DNA from: Escherichia phage 21
Reading direction: 5' to 3' (one strand)
Sequence record: OL657228.1
Length of the DNA: 42,931 bases
The position numbers were made by a program, and so were the translations under genes. The stretch's first letter is position 1; every line of letters begins with the position of its first letter. A model generated the notes under the pieces. That model saw only the letters and a program-made list of their open reading frames with translations. It was not told where the DNA came from and searched no databases. Positions 2,828 through 32,085 of the stretch are shown here, piece by piece.

Positions 2828-4416
2828 AACGAACGCCTGTCCTGATTGATGTGAACGGCGTTCCGCTTCGTGAGAGTCTCAGCTACAACGGGGGCGGTGC
2901 AGGATTTGGCGGGCAAATGGCTGAGTGGTTGCCACCGGCGCAGAGTGCCGATGCGGCCCTGCTGCCCGCGTTGCGTCTGGGGAATGCCCGGGCAGATGAT
3001 CTGGTGCGCAATAACGGAATAGCGGCTAATGCGGTGGCTCTGCATAAGGATCACATTGTCGGGCATATGTTTCTGATCAGCTACCGTCCGAACTGGCGCT
3101 GGCTGGGGATGCGGGAGACCGCAGCAAAAAGCTTTGTCGATGAGGTGGAGGCGGCCTGGTCGGAATACGCCGAAGGGATGTTTGGCGAGATCGACGTGGA
3201 AGGAAAACGCACGTTCACGGAATTTATCCGTGAAGGTGTGGGCGTTCATGCGTTTAACGGCGAAATCTTTGTGCAGCCGGTCTGGGATACGGAAACCACG
3301 CAGTTATTCCGTACGCGTTTTAAAGCCGTGAGTCCGAAACGGGTGGACACGCCTGGACACGGTATGGGGAACCGTTTTCTGCGGGCCGGTGTGGAGGTCG
3401 ATCGATATGGCCGTGCCGTCGCGTACCATATCTGTGAGGATGATTTTCCGTTCTCTGGTAGTGGACGATGGGAACGGATCCCGCGTGAACTTCCCACCGG
3501 GCGTCCGGCCATGCTGCATATTTTCGAGCCGGTGGAGGACGGGCAGACCCGTGGGGCTAATCAGTTTTACAGCGTCATGGAACGGCTGAAGATGCTCGAT
3601 TCCCTGCAGGCAACACAGCTTCAGTCGGCCATAGTGAAGGCGATGTATGCAGCGACGATTGAAAGTGAACTTGATACCGAAAAGGCCTTTGAATATATCG
3701 CCGGCGCGCCACAGGAGCAGAAGGATAATCCGCTTATTAATATTCTGGAGAAGTTTTCCAGCTGGTATGACACGAATAACGTGACACTGGGCGGTGTCAA
3801 AATTCCGCACCTTTTCCCTGGTGATGATCTGAAACTACAGACTGCGCAGGATTCAGACAATGGATTTTCTGCGCTTGAACAGGCGCTGCTGCGGTATATC
3901 GCCGCCGGTCTTGGCGTTTCCTACGAACAGTTGTCCCGTGATTACTCGAAGGTCAGTTACTCAAGTGCCCGCGCCTCCGCCAATGAGTCGTGGCGCTATT
4001 TTATGGGGCGGCGAAAATTTATTGCGGCCCGGCTGGCCACGCAGATGTTTTCCTGCTGGCTGGAAGAGGCACTTCTTCGGGGGATTATTCGTCCGCCACG
4101 GGCACGTTTTGATTTTTATCAGGCGCGATCAGCCTGGTCACGGGCAGAGTGGATTGGTGCCGGAAGAATGGCCATTGACGGGCTCAAGGAAGTCCAGGAA
4201 TCAGTGATGCGCATTGAGGCCGGACTGAGCACGTATGAGAAAGAGCTGGCGCTGATGGGCGAGGATTATCAGGACATTTTCCGCCAGCAGGTCAGGGAAT
4301 CTGCTGAGCGGCAAAAAGCCGGACTCTCACGTCCGGTGTGGATAGAGCAGGCGTATCAGCAGCAGATAGCGGAGAGTCGTAGGCCGGAAGAGGAGACAAC
4401 ACCACGTGAGACGTAA
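2824..4416 (+). CDS. B: portal protein (gpB)
   Basis: Start at MKRTPVLID (ORF-track start +30 nt); high similarity to lambda gpB (FEPVEDGQTRGAN.FYSVME, QTAQDSDNGFSALEQALLRYIAAGLGVSYEQLSR). Confidence 0.92.
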   Translation: MKRTPVLIDVNGVPLRESLSYNGGGAGFGGQMAEWLPPAQSADAALLPALRLGNARADDLVRNNGIAANAVALHKDHIVGHMFLISYRPNWRWLGMRETAAKSFVDEVEAAWSEYAEGMFGEIDVEGKRTFTEFIREGVGVHAFNGEIFVQPVWDTETTQLFRTRFKAVSPKRVDTPGHGMGNRFLRAGVEVDRYGRAVAYHICEDDFPFSGSGRWERIPRELPTGRPAMLHIFEPVEDGQTRGANQFYSVMERLKMLDSLQATQLQSAIVKAMYAATIESELDTEKAFEYIAGAPQEQKDNPLINILEKFSSWYDTNNVTLGGVKIPHLFPGDDLKLQTAQDSDNGFSALEQALLRYIAAGLGVSYEQLSRDYSKVSYSSARASANESWRYFMGRRKFIAARLATQMFSCWLEEALLRGIIRPPRARFDFYQARSAWSRAEWIGAGRMAIDGLKEVQESVMRIEAGLSTYEKELALMGEDYQDIFRQQVRESAERQKAGLSRPVWIEQAYQQQIAESRRPEEETTPRET

Positions 4417-21966: not shown

Positions 21967-22824
21967 CTAATTGGGTGATAACAGATCCTGTGTATGGGAG
22001 TTTCCCTTTTTGCGTGCGTTGATGCTGGTAACGGCAAACGTCATGATGAACAAAACCGCGAATAAGACGACAATCGTCGGAGCTGGTGCGCTGTCGATAA
22101 AAAAGGACAACCAGACACCAGTCATTGACACTATTACCGATATGCCAGTCGCCAGTAGGAGCGCAATATGAAAGCGTTGTGTCAGGAGTACCGCAATGGC
22201 GCCAGGCGCAATGAGCAGAGAAATGGAGAGAATGATACCTACCGCTTTCAGCGTCGCCACAATGGTCAGAGAGACCATGCACAGCAGCCCATAATGCAGC
22301 CATCTCGTATGCAAACCGCTTACCTGCGCCTGTTGATAATCAAAGCTGAACAGCAAAAAATCCCGCCATTTTACGCTAATAACAAGTGTAACCAGCCCGG
22401 CAATAATCATCGTCTGGATTATATCGCCGATGGTTATCCCGAGCATGTCGCCGAAAAGAATATGGTCAAGATGTACGTCTGGTTTGACTGCAATATACAA
22501 GATCAGACCTGCGGCAAACATGCCAGAAAAAACAATCCCCATCACTGTATCTTGCTTGATTCGGCTGTTGTCTTTCAGGTATCCCGTCGCCACCGCGCAG
22601 AATACTCCGGCGACGAATGCCCCTGTAGCCAAAGGTAACCCCAGAATCCAGGCAAGCACGATTCCAGGAAAAACCGCATGACTCATCGCGTCACCCATCA
22701 GTGCCCAACCTTTCAGGACCAGAAAGACCGACAGCAGCGCACAGGGTATGGAAACTACCAGTGAAATCAGCAGTGCGTGACTCATAAAGGTGAACTGCAG
22801 TGGCTCCAGTAATAATGCCATCAT
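21967..22824 (-). CDS. sitD: Mn/Fe ABC transporter permease SitD
   Basis: 285 aa polytopic membrane protein, paralogous to the adjacent SitC and last gene of the four-gene minus-strand operon. Confidence 0.85.
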   Translation of the reverse strand: MMALLLEPLQFTFMSHALLISLVVSIPCALLSVFLVLKGWALMGDAMSHAVFPGIVLAWILGLPLATGAFVAGVFCAVATGYLKDNSRIKQDTVMGIVFSGMFAAGLILYIAVKPDVHLDHILFGDMLGITIGDIIQTMIIAGLVTLVISVKWRDFLLFSFDYQQAQVSGLHTRWLHYGLLCMVSLTIVATLKAVGIILSISLLIAPGAIAVLLTQRFHIALLLATGISVIVSMTGVWLSFFIDSAPAPTIVVLFAVLFIMTFAVTSINARKKGNSHTQDLLSPN

Positions 22825-23678
22825 GAGCGATCCTCCAGCGCCTTATGCGCACGCCGACGATTTGCCAAAAGCCCATGGGTGGGCGCAAAGACAAATGCTA
22901 AAAGAAACAGCAGTGTCTGCGCCACCACGATGATTCCACCTGTCGCGCCGTCCAGAAAGTAACTGACCCACGCGCCGAGGAAACTGGTCACACTGCCAAT
23001 AGTTACAGCAATCATGAGCAGGCGGGGAAAACGATCGGTTAACAACCATGCTGTTGCACCGGGAGTCACCACCAGACAGATCACCAGAAAGGCACCAACC
23101 GTTTGCAGCGCCGCAACGGTCGAAACCGACAGCAGGGTGAAGAAGATGAGTTTTAATCTGCCCGGATGCAATCCAATAGCACGGGCGTGATTCTCGTCGA
23201 AAAAGGTCACCATAAGATCTTTCCATTTGAAAAAAAGCACGATGATCGAGAGAATGCCAATGATAGTGAGTTGCAGGATATCCGCCGGATCGATTGCCAG
23301 AATATTGCCCAGGACGATGGTCTGAATGTTCACAGATGTCGGGTTCAATGACACCATAAACAGCCCCAGGCCAAAAAAGGACGAGAAGATCAGACCGATG
23401 ATGGCATCTTCTTTTAAGCGGGTGCGTTGGTTAAGAAACAGCATGCTGCCCGCAGCCAGTCCGCCGGAAAAGAAGGCTCCCAGAGAAAACGGAAGCCCCA
23501 GCATATATGCCCCCGCAACACCCGGGACAATAGAGTGCGACAACGCATCGCCAATCAGCGACCAGCCTTTTAGCATCAGATAGCATGACAGGAAAGCGCA
23601 GAGACCGCCGACCATCGCCGAGACCCACATCGCATTGAGCATATATTCATAGCTGAAGGGTTCCAGTAGCACGTTCAT
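22821..23678 (-). CDS. sitC: Mn/Fe ABC transporter permease SitC
   Basis: 285 aa polytopic membrane protein with ABC-3 permease character; overlaps sitB and sitD by 4 nt. Confidence 0.85.
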
Positions 23679-24502
23679 CTTTCTTCCCTCTGCACCGCTG
23701 ACGGTCGATGAGCCACAAAAGGGCGTTCATCGTCAGTAATAATGCTTTCTTCCGAGCCGTTAAGTGTGACATGGCGCAGTACGCCGCTAAAAGCCAGCTC
23801 TAGGTTCTCGGCTGTAAAAGTGGTGTCTGTCGGCCCGCTTGCCAGGACGGTGCCTTTGACCATGACCGTATAATCGCAAAATGTCGTGACGGATCCGAGA
23901 TTGTGTGTTGAGACAAGCATCGTTTTGCCTTCCGCGCGTAACTCCCTCAACAGGCTGATGATTTTGGCTTCGGTTTTCACATCAACGCCAGTAAAAGGTT
24001 CATCCAGCAGGATCACATCACCCTGCTGTGCAATCGCTCTCGCCAGAAAGACGCGTTTCTTTTGTCCACCGGAAAGCTCGCCGATTTGTCGATGGCGAAA
24101 ATTCACCATATCGACACGTTCCAGCGCATCGGTGACAATTTGACGATCCCTCTTTTTGGCGATACGCAACATACCCATATGCCCATAGCGGCCCATCATC
24201 ACCACATCTTCCACCAGTACAGGAAATGACCAGTCAACATCTTCTGACTGAGGGACGTAGGCAACCAGGTTTTTCTGTAACGCCTGTCGCGTGGGAATAC
24301 CCAGAACAGATATCTTTCCGCTGGTCAGACGCACAAATCCCATAATCGCTTTAAACAACGTCGATTTTCCGGAACCGTTTACCCCAACCAGAGCGGCAAT
24401 AGATCCACTTGGTACTGTGAAGGATGCATCGCGCAGTGCTGTGTGCCCGTTACGCCAGGTGACAGTAACATCATTAACGACAATGCCTGCAGATTGCATC
24501 AT
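23675..24502 (-). CDS. sitB: Mn/Fe ABC transporter ATP-binding protein SitB
   Basis: Walker [13 protein letters not shown] signature LSGGQKKRV, Walker B ILLDEP. Confidence 0.9.
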
Positions 24503-25416
24503 TATTTCTCCCTTTTCCCAGCTTTAATTCCCTGTACCAGCGTACTGGTAGTAACCTTAAGAAGGTCGATATACGTCGGTACCGGGCCGTTTTCTGTGCT
24601 CAGGGAATCGACATAGAGCACACCGCCGTAGTGTGCGCCGGTTTCACGCGCAACCTGACGCGCTGGTTTATCGGAAATCGTACTCTCGCTAAAGACTGCC
24701 GGGATATGATTTTTCTTAACTATATCAACAACCTTACGTACCTGCTGCGGTGTTCCTTGTTGATCGGCATTAATCGGCCACAGATAAAGCTCTTTTAGCC
24801 CCAAATCGCGTGCGAGATAAGAAAAAGCCCCTTCACTGGTGACCATCCATCGCTGATTCTCAGGGAGTTCCGTAATCTGCTTACGCAGGGGGGCAAGGGT
24901 TTGGGTAATCTTGGCTTTATAAGTATCGGCATTGCGTTGGTAGGTTTGTGCATTTGCCGGATCGTATTTTATCAACGCATCACGAATATTATCGACGTAA
25001 ATCAGAGCATTATCTGGCGACATCCATGCATGGGGGTTAGGTTTGCCCTCATAGGGTCCTTCGGTGATCCCTACAGGCGTCACACCCGAAGAGACAATTA
25101 CTTCTGGAACCCCATTGAGATGCTGGTAAAAGCGTTGGAACCACAATTCCAGATTCATACCATTGGCGAGAATCAGTTGTGCCCCCTGCGCACGTTTAAT
25201 ATCGCCAGGGGTAGGCTGATACTCATGAATTTCTGCACCAGGCCTGGTTATGGATGAGACTTCTGCAGCATCTCCCGCCACGTTTTTGGCCATATCCGCG
25301 ATGATGGTAAATGTTGTAATGACCTTGAATTTTTCAGTTGCACTTGCCTGAAATGCGATCGAGCAGGTGAGTGCGAGGCCCCCCAAGAGCATGGTTACTT
25401 TTTTTATTGAGTGCAT
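24502..25416 (-). CDS. sitA: periplasmic Mn/Fe-binding protein SitA
   Basis: 304 aa with N-terminal signal peptide ([26 protein letters not shown]); first gene of the operon; resembles cluster A-I metal-binding proteins. Confidence 0.88.
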
Positions 25417-25990: not shown

Positions 25991-26114
25991 AAGTGAACGA
26001 GGTTATGCTTGTCTTATATTATCCTCTATTTTAAAAACATCAGCTGGTTGTGTAAGAGTTTTTATTGTTTTATCTTGTTGACTTTGCTTTTATGAAAACA
26101 GAGTGATTGATACA

Positions 26115-26873
26115 ATGAAAACCTTAAGTGGGAAAGAGTTTAGGAAATTATTTAATCGTTATGAGACAGGATTCTATCTAAGTGAGTTTGAATACTTAAA
26201 GGACTTTGATCCTTTGTTTCCTGAATGCGTAGGGAAAGAATTAAAGTTGGGTTATAAACGAAAAGTTGATGTATGGTGCGAAGAGGATGCTGCGCTATAT
26301 GCAGAATTTATAGCTACAAAAGAAAGGCTGAAAAGAGGCCGGTTAATCCTAAAAATAAACCAAGTGTGGTCGCGTGTATATCCTGCTTATATTTATGCAA
26401 TTGAAGAAAGAATAAATGTCAGGGCAAAGGGGAGAGAGTCATTTAAGTATGAAACTGTGCAAGAAAAACAATGTAAACTTTCCATAATGTTAGATGGTCT
26501 GAAAGACCTTGAATGTGAAATAGCTATGATTTCAAGTGAGTTTGAAATTGAAAAACACTCTATGCACTATTTTTATATGATTTTTGATATTGAACGCTAT
26601 ATAAATGACTGCAGTTACTTTGTTTTTTCTGCTGCTAAAGTTGTTAAAGGCGTGATTCAATGCATTGGTTACATTGACAAAAATAACAAAGCAAGTTGCG
26701 ATGAATTTTATTCAGGCAGCTATGAATGCTTGGATGATGATCAGGAAACACTGAACTATTTAAATGAATCATGCGCAGAGGGTATAGACGCTGATAAAGA
26801 TCTCATCAGGAAGAATGAGTTATTAGCCTTATCCCTGAAGGAATTGTATCAACTTCTCGTTTCAAAAAAATAA
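26115..26873 (+). CDS. hypothetical protein, AT-rich orphan cargo gene (no recognisable family)
   Basis: ORF track 26103..26873; probable ATG at 26115 (MKTLSGKEF). Visibly AT-rich, Lys/Glu-rich with 9 Cys; TTGACT -35-like hexamer about 30 bp upstream; lies between the IS remnant and attP. Confidence 0.6.
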   Translation: MKTLSGKEFRKLFNRYETGFYLSEFEYLKDFDPLFPECVGKELKLGYKRKVDVWCEEDAALYAEFIATKERLKRGRLILKINQVWSRVYPAYIYAIEERINVRAKGRESFKYETVQEKQCKLSIMLDGLKDLECEIAMISSEFEIEKHSMHYFYMIFDIERYINDCSYFVFSAAKVVKGVIQCIGYIDKNNKASCDEFYSGSYECLDDDQETLNYLNESCAEGIDADKDLIRKNELLALSLKELYQLLVSKK

Positions 26874-27203
26874 CAAGTAATACGGCGAGCGATATGACGT
26901 GCCATGGGATATCCGCACCCAGCAGCATGTTGTCTCCACGATGTCCGCAGTTCGCTCATAATAGACATTCACTACAGTTATAGTAGAAGGTATGCATGCT
27001 GCTGAGTGGGGAAAGTGTGAAAGAAAAGAAGACAGCTGCTTTGTTTGTCGTCACGTTTATCTTCATTGGCTATGCAAGTCGTAATACAAGGCGGGACAAA
27101 ACTGAGACACATAAGGCCTCGCAATGGCTTGCAAGGCCACACATGTATTGAGATGTTAATAAAATGTAGACTTGTAATTTTGATATAAATGGTAGAGAAA
27201 ATC

Positions 27204-27610: not shown

Positions 27611-28753
27611 CTATGCTGTTTTGATATCTACGATAATCCAGTCTTTACCACGATCATCATTGTATCGGTCGGTCATTTTTCTGGATTTATGGCCTAACAA
27701 CTTTTGCGTATCCAGACCCTGTTCCCGATATAATCGTTCTGACAGAGATCGCTGTTCATGAAATGTGGGCGCAGTTCCTTGCTCCCATTTTATGCCACAT
27801 TTTTCCTTGGCCTTTTTAAAAGCCGTTGTCAGAGTATTTGCAGAAACCTGGTCTCCTCTGTTTGCTTGAGAGGTAGTGTGACGGTAATGGACCAGATATT
27901 TACTAACAACAGCATCCCTGCACTGAGATATAACTTCACGAAGGGTAATATTCAGAGCATCGCATTTCAGGTTAAGCGGAATAGCAAGTTTTGAACCGGT
28001 TTTTTCCTGAGTAATGTGCAACATGTCGTCCCATATATCAGAGAATTTCAAATTGCAGATATCGCCTAAACGTTGTCCAGTAACAAGAGCAAGTAGCATG
28101 CCGCATTTTAAATAGGGCTGCCGTCTGCTTACGCTTTCAAATATTGCCTGCCATTCGAGCAGTGACAATCTTTGGCGGTTTACTCGATTTCGCGGTTGTT
28201 TTGTTGCCTGCGCTGGGTTAAATCCTGGCGGAACATGTCCTGCGTGTTGTGCTTCTTTGAAGACGTCGATCAACACCATTCTCACGACTTGCGCCATCCT
28301 GTTATGACCTTCAGCCTTTACAGCATCAATTATTTCGGCAATATCAAGTGCGGTAATATCCTTGAGGTGTTGCATTCCACAATGCTCACGGAAAAGACGA
28401 ATGGGTTTGCCTTTTTGCCGATAGGAGTTGGGTCTTAGTTCATTATGTTGCAGCCTGTCCTCCTGGATAGAAATATATTTATCAAGCCATTCTGTCACCG
28501 TAATGTCTGAGCGCCTGCCTTTCATTCTTTCCAGACGCTCATTGACGCTTAATATTTGTCTGGTACGTTGTTCAGCAATAATGGTATTTGCTTCAGTAGC
28601 AACTTGTTTTGCTTCATTCTCATCAGTTCCTAAGCTATGAAAACGACCGGATAGTGGATGTTTGTATTGCCAATATACCTTTCCGGTTCGCTTATCTAAT
28701 TTGCAATATAAATTGGGTATAGAGATTTTGTGAGATCGGGGTCTAGCAGCCAT
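27611..28753 (-). CDS. int: tyrosine integrase (lambda-type, icd-targeting)
   Basis: 380 aa; N-terminal arm-binding-like domain, C-terminal catalytic region with ...HEQRSLSERLY...LLGHKSRKMTDRY (R..H..R..Y); adjacent to attP and xis. Confidence 0.92.
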   Translation of the reverse strand: MAARPRSHKISIPNLYCKLDKRTGKVYWQYKHPLSGRFHSLGTDENEAKQVATEANTIIAEQRTRQILSVNERLERMKGRRSDITVTEWLDKYISIQEDRLQHNELRPNSYRQKGKPIRLFREHCGMQHLKDITALDIAEIIDAVKAEGHNRMAQVVRMVLIDVFKEAQHAGHVPPGFNPAQATKQPRNRVNRQRLSLLEWQAIFESVSRRQPYLKCGMLLALVTGQRLGDICNLKFSDIWDDMLHITQEKTGSKLAIPLNLKCDALNITLREVISQCRDAVVSKYLVHYRHTTSQANRGDQVSANTLTTAFKKAKEKCGIKWEQGTAPTFHEQRSLSERLYREQGLDTQKLLGHKSRKMTDRYNDDRGKDWIIVDIKTA

Positions 28754-28979
28754 CAGCGATTATCCGTTGGAGTTTTGGGTTTGCGTTTATTGGGAGTTGC
28801 GGTTCTGCAAGCGTTCCTACAAAACGGGAATTTCGGTCAATCATCCAGTAGCGACCAACTTTTATAGCGGGTGGGGCCATCATTTTCCCTTGCGCGTATT
28901 TTTTCAGAACTCGCTCACTTGGTGCTAAGTCCCCAAATTCTTCTTTAGCCCAGTCCTGTAAAGTGATTAGTCGAGACAT
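28743..28979 (-). CDS. xis: excisionase
   Basis: 78 aa immediately upstream of and overlapping int; winged-helix-like (LITLQDWAKEEFG...IKVGRYWMI). Confidence 0.8.
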   Translation of the reverse strand: MSRLITLQDWAKEEFGDLAPSERVLKKYAQGKMMAPPAIKVGRYWMIDRNSRFVGTLAEPQLPINANPKLQRIIADGC

Positions 28980-29118
28980 TTGTCCTCCTCTTAGCTGCTG
29001 AGGGAGTTTGTGACCGATATATCTGACATGATATTAAGCTCATGGCAGGTACATCTCTTGACTGGTCATAGAGATAAATTTAATGCTGAAAAATGCAGTA
29101 TTGAATTTATCAATTTTT

Positions 29119-29358
29119 CTATTTCCTGCGTATGGCGCGTAACTTCTTAATGTGTTCTGCTGTATCGATCTCTTCGGCTATCCGCTCTGATTCCACTTTA
29201 CTAACAGGTTCAAAGTCATGATTAAAGCGGAACATGCTGGCGATACATGTTCTGCCTTTTCGGATGTAGTGAACTTTGTTGTGGGTAGAACGCAGGATTT
29301 TGCAGGGAGTGCCGTGGTGGTCGACGTACCAGGTGTTAGGGTAAATCACTCTGAACAT
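29119..29358 (-). CDS. hypothetical protein (early-left accessory region)
   Basis: 79 aa ORF in the int-xis-proximal variable region, co-oriented with the pL operon; no family recognised. Confidence 0.4.
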   Translation of the reverse strand: MFRVIYPNTWYVDHHGTPCKILRSTHNKVHYIRKGRTCIASMFRFNHDFEPVSKVESERIAEEIDTAEHIKKLRAIRRK

Positions 29359-29671
29359 TCTTGACCTTGTGTTGTGCGGATTGATATTCAGTGCTGATAT
29401 TCACCTTTATAGCGAACACCTTTACCGGTTTATCGCCAAAGTGCGGATGTGTGATTGTCTTCACTTCATATCCGTCATACGGAACATCAATTCTGCGACT
29501 GGAATCGTCGCGCTTCGGATATCCCTTTGTGATAATCAGGCGGTCATATTCCCGGAACATAATTCGCTTATTCCAGTAGTCATTACACAAGCGATACTCT
29601 TCTGTTTTCTCTCCGCGAATCATGGCATCGAAGTATTCACTTTTAACAGCAAGTTGCAGGTTAGCCATCAC
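29336..29671 (-). CDS. hypothetical protein, possible ASCH/PUA-like domain
   Basis: 111 aa; SEYFDAMIRGEKTEEYR resembles the ASCH-domain N-terminal motif; weak assignment from memory. Confidence 0.4.
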   Translation of the reverse strand: MMANLQLAVKSEYFDAMIRGEKTEEYRLCNDYWNKRIMFREYDRLIITKGYPKRDDSSRRIDVPYDGYEVKTITHPHFGDKPVKVFAIKVNISTEYQSAQHKVKNVQSDLP

Positions 29672-29889
29672 TTAATCCCCCTTTGTTTGCGGATAAGCTC
29701 CAGATCTTGCTGGCAACTGGCGCAAGTACGACAACCCTGAACGGCCAGTCGTCTTCGTTCATCTATCGGATCGCCACACTCACAACAATGAGTGGCAGAT
29801 ACAGCCAGGTAGTTCAGGCGGCGCATTTTTATTGCTGTGTTGCGCTGTAATTCTTCTATTTCTGATGCTGAATCAATGATGTCTGCCAT
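29668..29889 (-). CDS. TraR/DksA-family C4 zinc-finger protein
   Basis: 73 aa with CxxC-x17-CxxC (CCECGDPIDERRRLAVQGCRTCASC), typical of phage TraR-like proteins. Confidence 0.65.
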   Translation of the reverse strand: MADIIDSASEIEELQRNTAIKMRRLNYLAVSATHCCECGDPIDERRRLAVQGCRTCASCQQDLELIRKQRGIK

Positions 29890-29987
29890 CTTTCATTAAT
29901 CCCTGAACTGTTGGTTAATACGCTTGAGGGCGAATGCGAATAATAAAAAAGGAGCCTGTAGCTCCATGATGATTTTGTTTTTCATGT

Positions 29988-30269
29988 TCACCGTTCCTTA
30001 AAGACGCCGTTTAACATGCCGATCGCCAGGCTTAAATGAGTCGGTGTGAATCCCATCAGCGTTACCGTTTCGCGGTGCTTCTTCAGTACGCTACGGCAAA
30101 TGTCATCGACGTTTTTATCCGGAAACTGCTGTCTGGCTTTTTTGATTTCATAATTAGCCTGACGGGCAATACTGCGAAGGGCGTTTTCTTGCTGAGGTGT
30201 CATTGAACAAGTCCCATGTCGGCAAGCATAAGCACACAGAATATGAAGCCCGCTGCCAGAAAAATGCAT
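29988..30269 (-). CDS. hypothetical protein
   Basis: 93 aa ORF; ATG directly follows the upstream gene's stop codon (possible coupling); start may instead be the internal Met (MTPQQ...). Confidence 0.4.
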   Translation of the reverse strand: MHFSGSGLHILCAYACRHGTCSMTPQQENALRSIARQANYEIKKARQQFPDKNVDDICRSVLKKHRETVTLMGFTPTHLSLAIGMLNGVFKER

Positions 30270-30279
30270 TCAGTGGTTG

Positions 30280-30471
30280 TCATACTTGGTCTCTCTCATC
30301 TGCTTCTGCTTTCGCCACCATCATTTCCAGCTTTTGTGAAAGGGATGTGGCTAACGTATGAAACTCTTCGTCTGTTTCTGCTGGTATTGGCACAAACCTG
30401 GCTCCAATTTGAGCAAGGCTATGTGCCATCTCAATGCTCGTTTTTAACTCAACAGGAGATGCTTTGTGCAT
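30280..30471 (-). CDS. hypothetical small protein
   Basis: 63 aa ORF in the operon between exo and xis; no family recognised. Confidence 0.4.
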   Translation of the reverse strand: MHKASPVELKTSIEMAHSLAQIGARFVPIPAETDEEFHTLATSLSQKLEMMVAKAEADERDQV

Positions 30472-30632
30472 ACAGCCCCTCGTTTATTATTTATCTCCTC
30501 AGCCAGCCGCTGGGCTTTCAGTGGATTTTGGATAACAGAAAGGCCGGGAAATACCCAGCCTCGCTTTGTAACGGAGTAGACGAAAGTGATCGCACCTACC
30601 CGGATATTATCGTGAGGATGCTTCATCGCCAT
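30444..30632 (-). CDS. hypothetical small protein
   Basis: 62 aa ORF immediately downstream of exo, overlapping the exo stop. Confidence 0.4.
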
Positions 30633-31303
30633 TGCTCCCCAAATACAAAACCAATTTCAGCCAGTGCCTCGTCCATTTTTTCGATGAACTCCGGCACCAT
30701 CTCGTCAAAACTAGCCATGTACTTTTCATCCCGCTCAACCACGACATAATGCAGTCCTTCACGCTTCATACGCGGGTCATAGTTGGCAAAGTACCAGGCA
30801 TCTTTTCGCGTCACCCACATGCTGTACTGCACCTGGGCCATGTAAGCTGACTTTATGGCCTCGAAACCACCGAGCCGGAACTTCATGAAATTCCGGGAGG
30901 TAAACGGGCATTTCAGTTCAAGGCCGTTGCCGTCACTGCATAAACCATCCGGAGAGCAGGCGGTACGCATACTTTCGTCGCGATAGATGATCGGTGATTC
31001 AGTAACATTCACGCCGGAAGTGAACTCAAACAGGGCTCTGGCGTCGTTCTCGTACTGTTTTCCCCAGGCCAGCGCTTTAGCGTTAACTTCCGGAGCCACA
31101 CCGGTGCAAACCTCAGCAAGCAGGGTGTGGAAGTAGGACATTTTCATGTCAGGCCACTTTTTTCCGGAGCGGGGTTTTGCTATTACGTTATGAACTTCTG
31201 AAGCTGTGATGACGCCGAGCCGTAATTTGTGCCACGCATCATCCCCCTGTTCGACAGCTCTCACGTCGATCCCGGTACGCTGCAGGATAATGTCCGGTGT
31301 CAT
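30623..31303 (-). CDS. exo: exonuclease (Red-alpha)
   Basis: 226 aa, essentially identical to lambda Exo as recalled ([40 protein letters not shown]...). Confidence 0.96.
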
Positions 31304-32085
31304 GCTGCCACCTTCTGCTCTGCGGCTTTCTGTTTCAGGAATCCAAGAGCTTTTACTGCTTCGGCCTGTGTCAGTTCTGACGATGCGCGAATGTCGCGGC
31401 GAAATATCTGGGAACAGAGCGGCAATAAGTCGTCATCCCATGTTTTATCCAGGGCGATCAGCAGAGTGTTAATCTCCTGCATGCTTTCATCGTTAACCGG
31501 AGTGATGTCGCGTTCCGGCTGGCGTTCTGCAGTGTATGCGGTATTTTCGACAATGCGCTCGGCTTCATCCTTGTCATAGATACCAGCAAATCCGAAGGCC
31601 AGGCGGGCACACTGAATCATGGCTTTATGCCGTAACATCCGTTTAGGATGCGACTGCCACGGCCCCGTGATTTCTCTGCCTTCGCGGGTTTTGAATGGTT
31701 CGCGGCGGCATTCATCCATCCACTCGGTAACGCAGATCGGATGATTACGGTCCTTGCGGTAAATCCGGCATGTACAGGATTCGTTGTCCTGCTCAAAGTC
31801 CATGCCATCAAACTGCTGGTTTTCATTGATGATGCGGGACCAGCCATCAACGCCCACCACCGGAACGATGCCGTTCTGCTTATCAGGAAAGGCGTAAATT
31901 TCTTTCGTCCACGGATTAAGGCCGTACTGGTTGGCGACGATCAGCAATGCGATGAACTGCGCATCGCTGGCATCACCTTTAAATGCCGTCTGGCGAAGAG
32001 TGGTGATCAGTTCCTGTGGGTCGACAGAATCCATGCCGACACGTTCAGCCAGCTTCCCAGCCAGCGTTGCGAGTGCTGTACTCAT
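31300..32085 (-). CDS. bet: recombinase Bet (Red-beta)
   Basis: 261 aa, essentially identical to lambda Beta ([37 protein letters not shown]...). Confidence 0.96.

Follow-up and report, generated by a model that had tools for sequence, protein, structure and literature searches.

What are the six small genes that lie between xis and exo in Escherichia phage 21, and are they new? In the stretch of DNA analyzed here (the window: 42,931 nucleotides, record OL657228.1), positions 29119-30632 hold six minus-strand open reading frames (ORFs), all co-directional in the ORF list, between xis (28743-28979) and exo (30623-31303). The initial annotation had described them as a variable, non-lambda block of the early left (pL) operon, with possible anti-defence functions. 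Their number, orientation and place in the pL operon are borne out by the gene order, int-xis-[six ORFs]-exo-bet-gam-kil, which runs on one strand throughout.

All six ORFs have strong matches to phage protein families in PHROGs (E = 1e-25 to 3e-51), and NCBIfam returned no match for five of them. Among relatives, synonymous substitutions are in significant excess in five of the six genes (the ASCH-like gene, orf73, the core of orf61, orf60a and the DUF4222 gene), the exception being orf63, where the excess is marginal (P = 0.079). The genes are linked by start/stop overlaps of the ATGA and TGATG type, and the region is probably home to one or two more very short ORFs, 27 and 31 codons long. 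A search of 28500-31500 against Rfam gave a chance-level miRNA match alone (E = 0.35), and a repeat search of the region found nothing meaningful. An AT-rich inverted repeat in the gap between the DUF4222 gene and xis (29073-29111) was dropped as a feature, its stability relative to shuffled sequences not being significant (z = -1.3).

We propose that the block is, very probably, an exo-xis region as carried by a lambdoid phage of the phage 21 type (genus Jouyvirus), composed of a lambda module and two replacement cassettes. Small accessory genes would be closely packed in it, most of them coupled in translation, and be expressed from the leftward, N-antiterminated early pL operon; such exo-xis genes would be dispensable for plaque formation and would adjust host physiology and the balance of lysis and lysogeny. 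The exo-proximal two thirds (30632 to 29668) would correspond to the conserved set orf60a-orf63-orf61-orf73, with Orf73 as the key known effector, and the xis-proximal third (29668 to 29119) to a recombinational replacement of ea22-ea8.5-orf55 by two independent cassettes. Functions in this phage 21-type block are assigned wholly by homology.

The lambda-like part of the region

In a DNA alignment, positions 29668-30700 of the window are about 95% identical to lambda 30392-31420, and the homology breaks exactly at the orf73 stop codon. The genes orf60a, orf63, orf61 and orf73 are co-directional and follow each other in the lambda order directly downstream of exo, so that only 29119-29668, with two ORFs, departs from lambda. 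The exo-xis region has been described as a conserved block and, after it, a variable tail, with early transcription from pL and support by ribosome profiling, with ea22 counted as the fifth member of the conserved block (PMC8614690). Compared with the lambda arrangement (orf60a-orf63-orf61-orf73-ea22-ea8.5-orf55), the first four genes, their order and the t1 and t2 hairpins are alike, whereas an ASCH-like and a DUF4222 gene stand here in place of ea22-ea8.5-orf55. The slot after orf73 is taken by the start of the ASCH-like gene rather than by an ea22 homologue. Neither ea22, ea8.5 nor orf55 was found anywhere in the window, and a tblastn search of the whole window with lambda Ea22 gave no match below E = 2. 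Two further differences from lambda are a full-length orf61 (a 93-aa ORF, like that of phi24B and 933W, which is frameshifted in the lambda reference) and int and xis genes of the phage 21 type, with integration at icd.

At the sequence level, then, the block is not new: four of its six genes are conserved lambda exo-xis genes, and the last two are swapped-in cassettes. The lambda orf60a, orf63, orf61 and orf73 genes have their own literature (PMC8614690, PMC4195576, PMC6213356, PMC5575149). Taken literally, the earlier statement that the ORFs do not correspond to the lambda ea genes is correct. The description as non-lambda and variable fits the two ORFs of 29119-29668 and has to be given up for the other four; characterised lambda ea/orf proteins thus account for four of the six ORFs, not for all.

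The exo-proximal gene, orf60a (30444..30626, minus strand; 60 aa), has 97% amino acid identity to its lambda homologue, belongs to Pfam DUF1317 (E = 5.7e-40) and displays a synonymous excess (P = 0.004). Its likely start is not the upstream in-frame ATG at 30632 but that at 30626, which forms an ATGA overlap with the exo stop codon. A terminator-like hairpin lies inside the gene (30540..30562, minus strand; RNA fold -17.6 kcal/mol, z = -3.4); this predicted terminator is identical in sequence to the predicted t1 of the lambda and phi24B literature (PMC4195576). The next gene, orf63 (30280..30471, minus strand; 63 aa, DUF1382, E = 6.9e-28), has 90% amino acid identity to lambda orf63. Its substitutions are nearly neutral in our sample (12 synonymous and 25 non-synonymous), and two unique sequences among the relatives carry stop codons.

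For orf61, the longest ORF spans 93 aa, as in Stx phages (29988..30269, minus strand; PHROG 303, E = 1.2e-42), and is collinear with lambda orf61 plus the 60-aa ORF next to it, lambda having a run of A7 where the window has A6. The real gene is probably the 71-aa core starting from MTPQQ (29988-30203): the core has 19 synonymous versus 12 non-synonymous substitutions (P = 2e-6), the frame of the N-terminal extension 2 versus 6, and the MTPQQ start codon, ATG here, is GTG in six unique relatives. A scan of contigs with the core for divergent homologues returned mostly lambda DNA contaminating unrelated assemblies, and added no diversity.

A conserved candidate 27-codon ORF for a hydrophobic peptide (MTTTECIFLAAGFIFCVLMLADMGLVQ) also sits within "orf61" (30200..30283, minus strand), proposed from its sequence and substitution pattern. 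ATGA overlaps couple it with the orf63 stop on one side and with the start of the orf61 core on the other, and it stays intact in each of the 12 further unique sequences that the 75 full-length gapless hits comprise. Codon position 3 takes 11 of its 14 distinct substitutions, and synonymous changes outnumber non-synonymous ones by 9 to 5 (P = 0.001). No family match was obtained in PHROGs or NCBIfam.

The gap between orf61 and orf73 is crossed by a 31-codon ORF from the ORF list (29896..29991, minus strand), which starts with GTG here and ATG in lambda and has a weak selection signal (6 synonymous versus 8 non-synonymous, P = 0.03). A 31-aa "orf2313" is known from lambda ribosome profiling (PMC8614690), and the two may correspond, judging by equal length only. 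Our scan also found an intrinsic-terminator-like hairpin in this gap, GGAGCUacaGGCUCC followed by U6 (29941..29965, minus strand; fold -8.6 kcal/mol, z = -2.8), overlapped by the predicted promoter p1. It is identical to the t2 sequence placed between orf61 and orf73, downstream of which lambda transcripts are lower; t1, t2 and p1 are all predicted signals (PMC4195576).

Orf73 and the host RNA polymerase

The orf73 product (29668..29889, minus strand; 73 aa) is a TraR-family C4 zinc-finger protein, as the initial annotation had recognized. Its finger has the form CxxC-17-CxxC (C35/C38...C56/C59), and it scores 36.0 bits on Pfam PF01258 (zf-dksA_traR; cut-off 24.9), with further matches to PHROG 54, "DksA-like zinc-finger" (E = 2.5e-25), and to TraR in the PDB (5w1s, E = 1e-4). 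On the NCBIfam model TIGR02419 (C4_traR_proteo) it reaches 55.1 bits, narrowly under the curated cut-off of 59.7. We consider this narrow miss to be outweighed by stronger evidence, namely orthology to lambda Orf73, with 90% amino acid identity at the same locus. Both proteins are 73 aa long and share the same six cysteines, including the extra C36 and C53, and 7 substitutions distinguish the one found here. At the DNA level, 14 synonymous versus 8 non-synonymous changes are counted (P = 5e-5). The TraR protein of the F plasmid has in common with it the DxxDxA tip (here D3-I-I-D6-S-A8, at the N-terminus), the C4 finger with its 17-residue spacing, a C-terminal helix and an arginine pair, R46/R47 aligning to TraR R48/R49 in a HMMER alignment with 5w1s_M that reaches residue 68; identity to TraR is, however, only 32%.

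Binding of lambda Orf73 to RNA polymerase (RNAP) has been shown experimentally: the protein enters the secondary channel but does not bind DNA; it needs no ppGpp to inhibit rRNA and ribosomal-protein promoters, and it makes the host grow more slowly and increases burst size and phage yield about 4-fold (PMC9239242, mBio 2022). The DxxDxA motif, which reaches the RNAP active-site region, is important (PMC9239242), and TraR R48/R49 have a role in contacts with the rim helices and beta' Si3. The effect of orf73 on yield varies between laboratories, and exo-xis phenotypes are modest and partly contradictory. Because identity to lambda Orf73 is 90% and every functional motif is intact, we infer that the function is the same, and that Orf73 of phage 21 almost certainly acts like its lambda counterpart on RNAP and on rRNA and ribosomal-protein promoters. 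The early suggestion that the finger protein might bind RNAP is thereby strengthened.

Two cassette genes next to xis

The first non-lambda cassette gene (29336..29668, minus strand) has its start ATG within a TGATG shared with the orf73 stop codon, and encodes a 110-aa protein for which an ASCH-like motif had been noted. Numbered from the ATG at 29668, the octapeptide GxKxxExR reads G19-E-K21-T-E-E24-Y-R26; among 70 diverse family members K21 never varies, G19, E24 and R26 being at least 90% conserved, and across the prophage family (more than 1000 cluster representatives) the Lys and Glu are invariant or nearly so. The structure model is a PUA-like beta-barrel similar to solved ASCH proteins. 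In contrast, the score on Pfam PF04266 is 14.3 bits, below the gathering score of 21.2, with the N-terminal 23 residues alone aligning; the best Pfam ASCH E-values are 0.029 among 31 close members and 0.003 among 70 distant ones. Searches of the PDB with phmmer and two profiles gave chance-level matches only to solved ASCH structures. As sequence searches of the PDB and Pfam stay at chance level, membership rests on the motif and the predicted fold, which support the ASCH-like call at the superfamily level, short of Pfam PF04266. The protein belongs to PHROG 625, a separate phage and prophage family with 1268 cluster representatives at E <= 1e-3, and its ORF carries a 15-residue C-terminal extension absent from most of the family.

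With cellular ASCH proteins (E. coli YqfB, Thermus TthASCH, Zymomonas ZmASCH, human TRIP4/EOLA1) it shares the "GKER"-class octapeptide and a small single-domain PUA-like beta-barrel, although identity in structural alignments is 12-22%. Nineteen cellular ASCH proteins are reported to be deacetylases of N4-acetylcytidine (ac4C) in tRNA, for which the octapeptide Lys and Glu are essential (bioRxiv 10.64898/2026.02.27.708502). By analogy, the phage protein most likely acts on RNA. It is a rather unlikely extension of this idea that the early protein serves as a phage eraser or reader of RNA modification, for example by deacetylating ac4C34 of the host elongator tRNA-Met. If so, an RNA-modifying ASCH-like protein and an RNAP-binding Orf73 would be made from one coupled transcript, and host translation and transcription would both be reprogrammed.

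The last gene before xis (29119..29358, minus strand) overlaps the 3' end of the ASCH-like gene by 23 nt and encodes a 79-aa DUF4222 protein (Pfam PF13973, 67.5 bits for a cut-off of 27). Its sole studied relative is RgdR (ECs1581), an EHEC prophage regulator that activates LEE1 and type III secretion, represses motility and binds DNA with low affinity, its RGD motif being tied to activity (PMC3378721). Both are small, basic, prophage-encoded PF13973 proteins. They differ in length (79 versus 99 aa) and share 29% identity over 45 aa; the RGD of RgdR (residues 20-22) is absent here, R20-G-D aligning to P7-N-T in the BLASTP register. Moreover, rgdR is the neighbor of a primase gene in a cryptic prophage of the P4-like kind, whereas the DUF4222 gene here is in the pL operon. 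Fold matches point to SH3-like barrels, too common a fold to indicate a partner. The likeness to RgdR weakly suggests, for the small DUF4222 protein, a probable role in modulating host transcription.

The same architecture is found elsewhere. The phage 21 int-xis record of 1991, M61865, matches positions 29100-29680 with 100% identity; the two cassette genes are present in it but left unannotated. Gene content and order are also the same in Escherichia phage ev207 (NC_049949), at 96.9% DNA identity, the RefSeq annotations being DUF4222, ASCH, DksA-like zinc finger, DUF1382 and DUF1317; a 4-nt deletion breaks its orf61, which is intact in the window. Among 80 related IMG/VR loci, 16 have the identical architecture through to int, another 4 have it as far as the contig reaches, and 30 have an ASCH-like gene in place of ea22. 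The ASCH, DUF4222, ea22 and orf55 cassettes occur elsewhere in other combinations, and DUF4222 and ASCH-like genes are found widely among the prophages of Enterobacteriaceae, Stx phages like 933W included. The gene set is therefore already known, having been deposited and annotated before: phage 21, ev207 and numerous E. coli prophages have it.

Alternative scenarios and significance

Could the ASCH-like and DUF4222 genes, or the whole block, serve in anti-defence (anti-restriction, anti-CRISPR or similar), as had been supposed? They have gam as a near neighbor in an early operon, as well as ral in relatives; their small size and their swapping from phage to phage are typical of counter-defence loci; PUA-like, ASCH and EVE folds recognize modified bases, and modification-dependent restriction enzymes are among the weaker fold matches. 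However, PADLOC defence-system models had zero matches for any of the six ORFs, no similarity to characterised anti-defence proteins appeared in Pfam, PHROGs, NCBIfam or the PDB, and the characterised relatives (Orf73, RgdR, ASCH enzymes) work on transcription or RNA. Nothing was thus found in support of an anti-restriction or anti-CRISPR role, and we regard this scenario as improbable.

Alternatively, the two cassette genes may be lysogenic-conversion "morons", expressed from the prophage and regulating host genes as RgdR does in EHEC. RgdR, the one DUF4222 protein studied, indeed acts on host promoters from a cryptic prophage, and both gene families are common across Enterobacteriaceae prophages. 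Yet the pair has the orientation of the pL-operon genes and overlaps with them: the ASCH start shares bases with the orf73 stop, and the DUF4222 gene begins inside the ASCH-like gene. A consensus scan detected no minus-strand promoter ahead of either, so that they should be repressed in the lysogen; the RGD motif that RgdR needs is also missing. We therefore tend to exclude this hypothesis, which appears very improbable.

Equally improbable is that some ORFs have lost, or are losing, their function and persist only through their location in a recombination-prone, non-essential region: the broken orf61 of lambda and ev207-type phages, the substitutions and stops of orf63 and the rare extension of the ASCH ORF would fit, but the significant synonymous excess in all the genes except orf63, the expression of the lambda homologues by ribosome profiling and qPCR (PMC8614690, PMC4195576) and the phenotypes measurable in lambda and phi24B argue against it.

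As an exo-xis region of lambda genes and replacement cassettes, the locus is of little weight as a discovery, since the lambdoid exo-xis region is described in many papers. It is nevertheless a natural variant that keeps Orf73 and the orf60a, orf63 and orf61 trio without ea22, ea8.5 and orf55, the other components of the proposed host replication initiation block ("bin") of lambda. A phage 21-type phage could help to separate the contributions of the "bin" genes. Finally, the two cassette families, ASCH-like PHROG 625 and DUF4222, are very common in enterobacterial prophages, and biochemistry on them would annotate thousands of genes.

Phage 21's exo-xis region

The interval from xis (28743-28979) to exo (30623-31303) is occupied, head to tail, by six minus-strand ORFs. 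All of them match phage protein families (PHROGs E 2.5e-25 to 2.6e-51), so none is a chance ORF, and the initial annotation had delimited all six exactly. From the xis side, they encode a DUF4222 protein (29119-29358, 79 aa), an ASCH-like protein (29336-29671, 111 aa, or 110 aa from the ATG at 29668), a TraR-like protein (29668-29889, 73 aa), and the products of orf61 (29988-30269, 93 aa), orf63 (30280-30471, 63 aa) and orf60a (30444-30632, 62 aa). With int, xis, exo, bet, gam and kil as neighbours, the block corresponds to a lambdoid leftward early operon. Aligned with lambda, the DNA is about 95% identical from inside exo as far as the 73-aa ORF's stop codon, beyond which similarity ends abruptly. 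The 62-aa and 63-aa ORFs are lambda orf60a (97% identity) and orf63 (90%), and the 73-aa ORF shares 90% identity with a lambda ORF of equal length left unannotated in NC_001416, named orf73 in the literature. Four of the six ORFs, initially thought to be foreign to lambda, are thus the lambda genes orf60a, orf63, orf61 and orf73, and the description of the block as variable applies to 29119-29668 only. No counterpart of lambda ea22, ea8.5 or orf55 was found anywhere in the window. The locus represents the phage 21 version of the lambdoid exo-xis region, which has been described before. This region comprises a conserved block (orf60a, orf63, orf61, orf73, ea22) and a variable tail, is transcribed early from pL and is confirmed by ribosome profiling (PMC8614690).

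The genes are tightly packed: the exo stop and the orf60a start have a common ATGA (ATG at 30626), 28 nt are shared by orf60a and orf63, the ASCH start overlaps the orf73 stop as TGATG, and the DUF4222 gene starts 23 nt within the ASCH gene. Between orf61 and orf73 (29965-29941) lies a hairpin with a U6 tail that makes a good intrinsic-terminator-like site, and a second, stable hairpin is present inside orf60a. They are identical to the t2 and t1 hairpins, respectively, predicted in lambda and phi24B; lambda transcripts are reported to be lower 3' of t2 (PMC4195576). An Rfam search over 28500-31500 returned no family, and a repeat search no significant repeat.

Orf61 and the tiny reading frames

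Are some of these ORFs decaying? In a sample of related loci, synonymous substitutions exceed the expectation from random mutation in five of the six ORFs (ASCH, P=6e-6; orf73, 5e-5; orf61 core, 2e-6; orf60a, 0.004; DUF4222, 0.018), and marginally in orf63 (P=0.079). These patterns contradict decay; possible exceptions are orf63 and, among some phages, orf61. The 93-aa ORF spans lambda orf61 and the following 60-aa ORF, unannotated in lambda. The window and most relatives have an A6 run (30136-30142, minus), versus A7 in the lambda reference (30870-30876; about 3371-3377 of the lambda locus L002), which is therefore frameshifted, with the 93-aa ORF split in two. In line with this, the literature notes that lambda's Orf61 seems truncated beside the 93-aa proteins of Stx phages. 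Phages of the ev207 type have, in place of this frameshift, a deletion of 4 nt some 20 nt beyond that site, so orf61 has been broken independently in different lineages.

The frameshifted lambda-type orf61 is also present at 100% identity in assemblies of Shewanella, Pseudomonas, Bradyrhizobium, Paenibacillus, Kitasatospora and others (L089, L093, L096 and other loci among L090-L102). Several of these contigs have low coverage, and three (L089, L093, L096) measure about 48.4-48.5 kb; they almost certainly reflect contamination of public genomes by lambda control DNA.

A 27-codon hydrophobic ORF, MTTTECIFLAAGFIFCVLMLADMGLVQ (30200-30283, minus), overlaps the annotated orf61 N-terminus in a different frame. 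It is identical in lambda, where it is unannotated, and has a common ATGA both with the orf63 stop and with the MTPQQ start of a 71-aa orf61 core (29988-30203). Of 14 distinct substitutions, 11 hit codon position 3 in its frame and nine are synonymous (P=0.001); read in the frame of the orf61 N-terminus, these bases yield two synonymous and six non-synonymous changes, a pattern that favours the 27-codon frame. Together with the alternation of the MTPQQ ATG with GTG among relatives, and the TGA that closes lambda's annotated orf61 start in most of them, it suggests that the real orf61 is the 71-aa core, preceded by a tiny membrane peptide gene; this is a lead, drawn from a small sample of closely related loci. 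A 31-codon ORF (29896-29991, minus) spans the orf61-orf73 gap, contains the t2 hairpin and is overlapped by the orf61 stop. Its start is GTG in the window and ATG in lambda, its selection signal is weak (6 synonymous versus 8 non-synonymous), and it equals in length the 31-aa 'orf2313' of lambda ribosome profiling.

The ASCH-like and DUF4222 cassettes

Positions 29100-29680 match M61865, the phage 21 int-xis record of 1991, at 100% identity, and the integrase is of the phage 21 type, which targets icd. Overall, the window is closest to the Jouyvirus phages ev017 and ev207; RefSeq ev207 has the same six genes in unchanged order, with the labels DUF4222, ASCH, DksA-like zinc finger, DUF1382 and DUF1317. 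Among 80 IMG/VR loci collected with the Orf73 protein as query, 16 have the complete order orf73, ASCH, DUF4222, xis, int(icd), and another four agree with it up to the contig end. Remaining arrangements include ASCH accompanied by the orf55 and xis of lambda, and ea22 accompanied by a distant DUF4222, so the cassettes move independently. The ASCH gene also occurs in 933W, VT2-Sakai and P22-like Salmonella phages.

An 'icd pseudogene' feature of M61865 sits between xis and the DUF4222 gene (window 29008-29171; 2211-2374 of that record, L084), whereas ev207 and ev017 have their annotated icd fragment at the other side of int, adjoining attP. The 1991 annotation looks misplaced, and masks both cassette genes. 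Elsewhere, four ORFs at about 21967-25416 (minus) are collinear with sitD, sitC, sitB and sitA of ev017 (iron/manganese ABC transporter); their place is the b region, with the tail fibre genes on one side and attP/int on the other, and they are host-benefit cargo. Just left of attP/int, G+C drops to 35% (26001-27000; 45-58% elsewhere), over a stretch containing a 256-aa ORF (26103-26873, plus) whose counterpart is an ev017 hypothetical protein.

From its sequence alone, ASCH membership of the 111-aa protein would be weak: Pfam ASCH scores 14.3 bits against a threshold of 21.2 and covers the first 23 residues only, significance was never reached among 31 close and 70 distant relatives, and profile searches recovered no solved ASCH protein. 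Support for membership comes from the ASCH octapeptide GxKxxExR (G19, K21, E24, R26), which ranks among the best-conserved positions of the family, with K21 invariant and the others at least 90% conserved in 70 diverse members. We therefore assign the protein to the ASCH superfamily, where it forms a prophage family of its own (PHROG 625, with 1268 cluster representatives at E<=1e-3), and the initial ASCH-like call was correct. In a 2026 preprint, whose assays covered cellular ASCH proteins and no phage one, 19 members, among them the 'GKER' class that has the octapeptide of the window protein, are reported to strip N4-acetylcytidine from tRNA, Lys and Glu being essential (bioRxiv 10.64898/2026.02.27.708502). 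By analogy, an RNA-directed role is reasonable but unproven. The ORF overruns the usual family C-terminus (93-96 aa) by about 15 residues, into the DUF4222 start (29336-29380, minus), an overrun that resembles a scar left when recombination brought the two cassettes together; ev017, unlike the window, has the two genes separate.

A role of the cassettes in lysogenic conversion, as for RgdR, a DUF4222 protein of EHEC, is unlikely because they are coupled to the pL operon and a consensus scan found no promoter match before them. An anti-defence role has a low probability and nothing here supports it, none of the six ORFs having a PADLOC match.

The TraR-like protein Orf73

The recognition of a TraR/DksA-like protein was sound. 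The 73-aa protein passes Pfam zf-dksA_traR (36 bits versus 24.9) and matches solved TraR chains, although it falls formally below the cut-off of the NCBIfam TraR subfamily model (55.1 versus 59.7 bits). It has the DxxDxA tip motif (D3, D6, A8), the zinc-finger cysteines C35xxC38-17-C56xxC59, two adjacent arginines that align with R48/R49 of TraR, and both extra cysteines peculiar to lambda Orf73. That such a protein can bind RNA polymerase, as initially proposed, is already published: lambda Orf73 binds RNAP, inhibits the promoters for rRNA and r-proteins both in vitro and in vivo, slows host growth, and raises phage yield 3- to 4-fold in a D3/D6-dependent manner (Gopalkrishnan et al., PMC9239242). 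The most interesting gene of the locus is thus already characterised in lambda and, given 90% identity at the same locus, the obvious expectation is that the phage 21 protein would act by the same mechanism.
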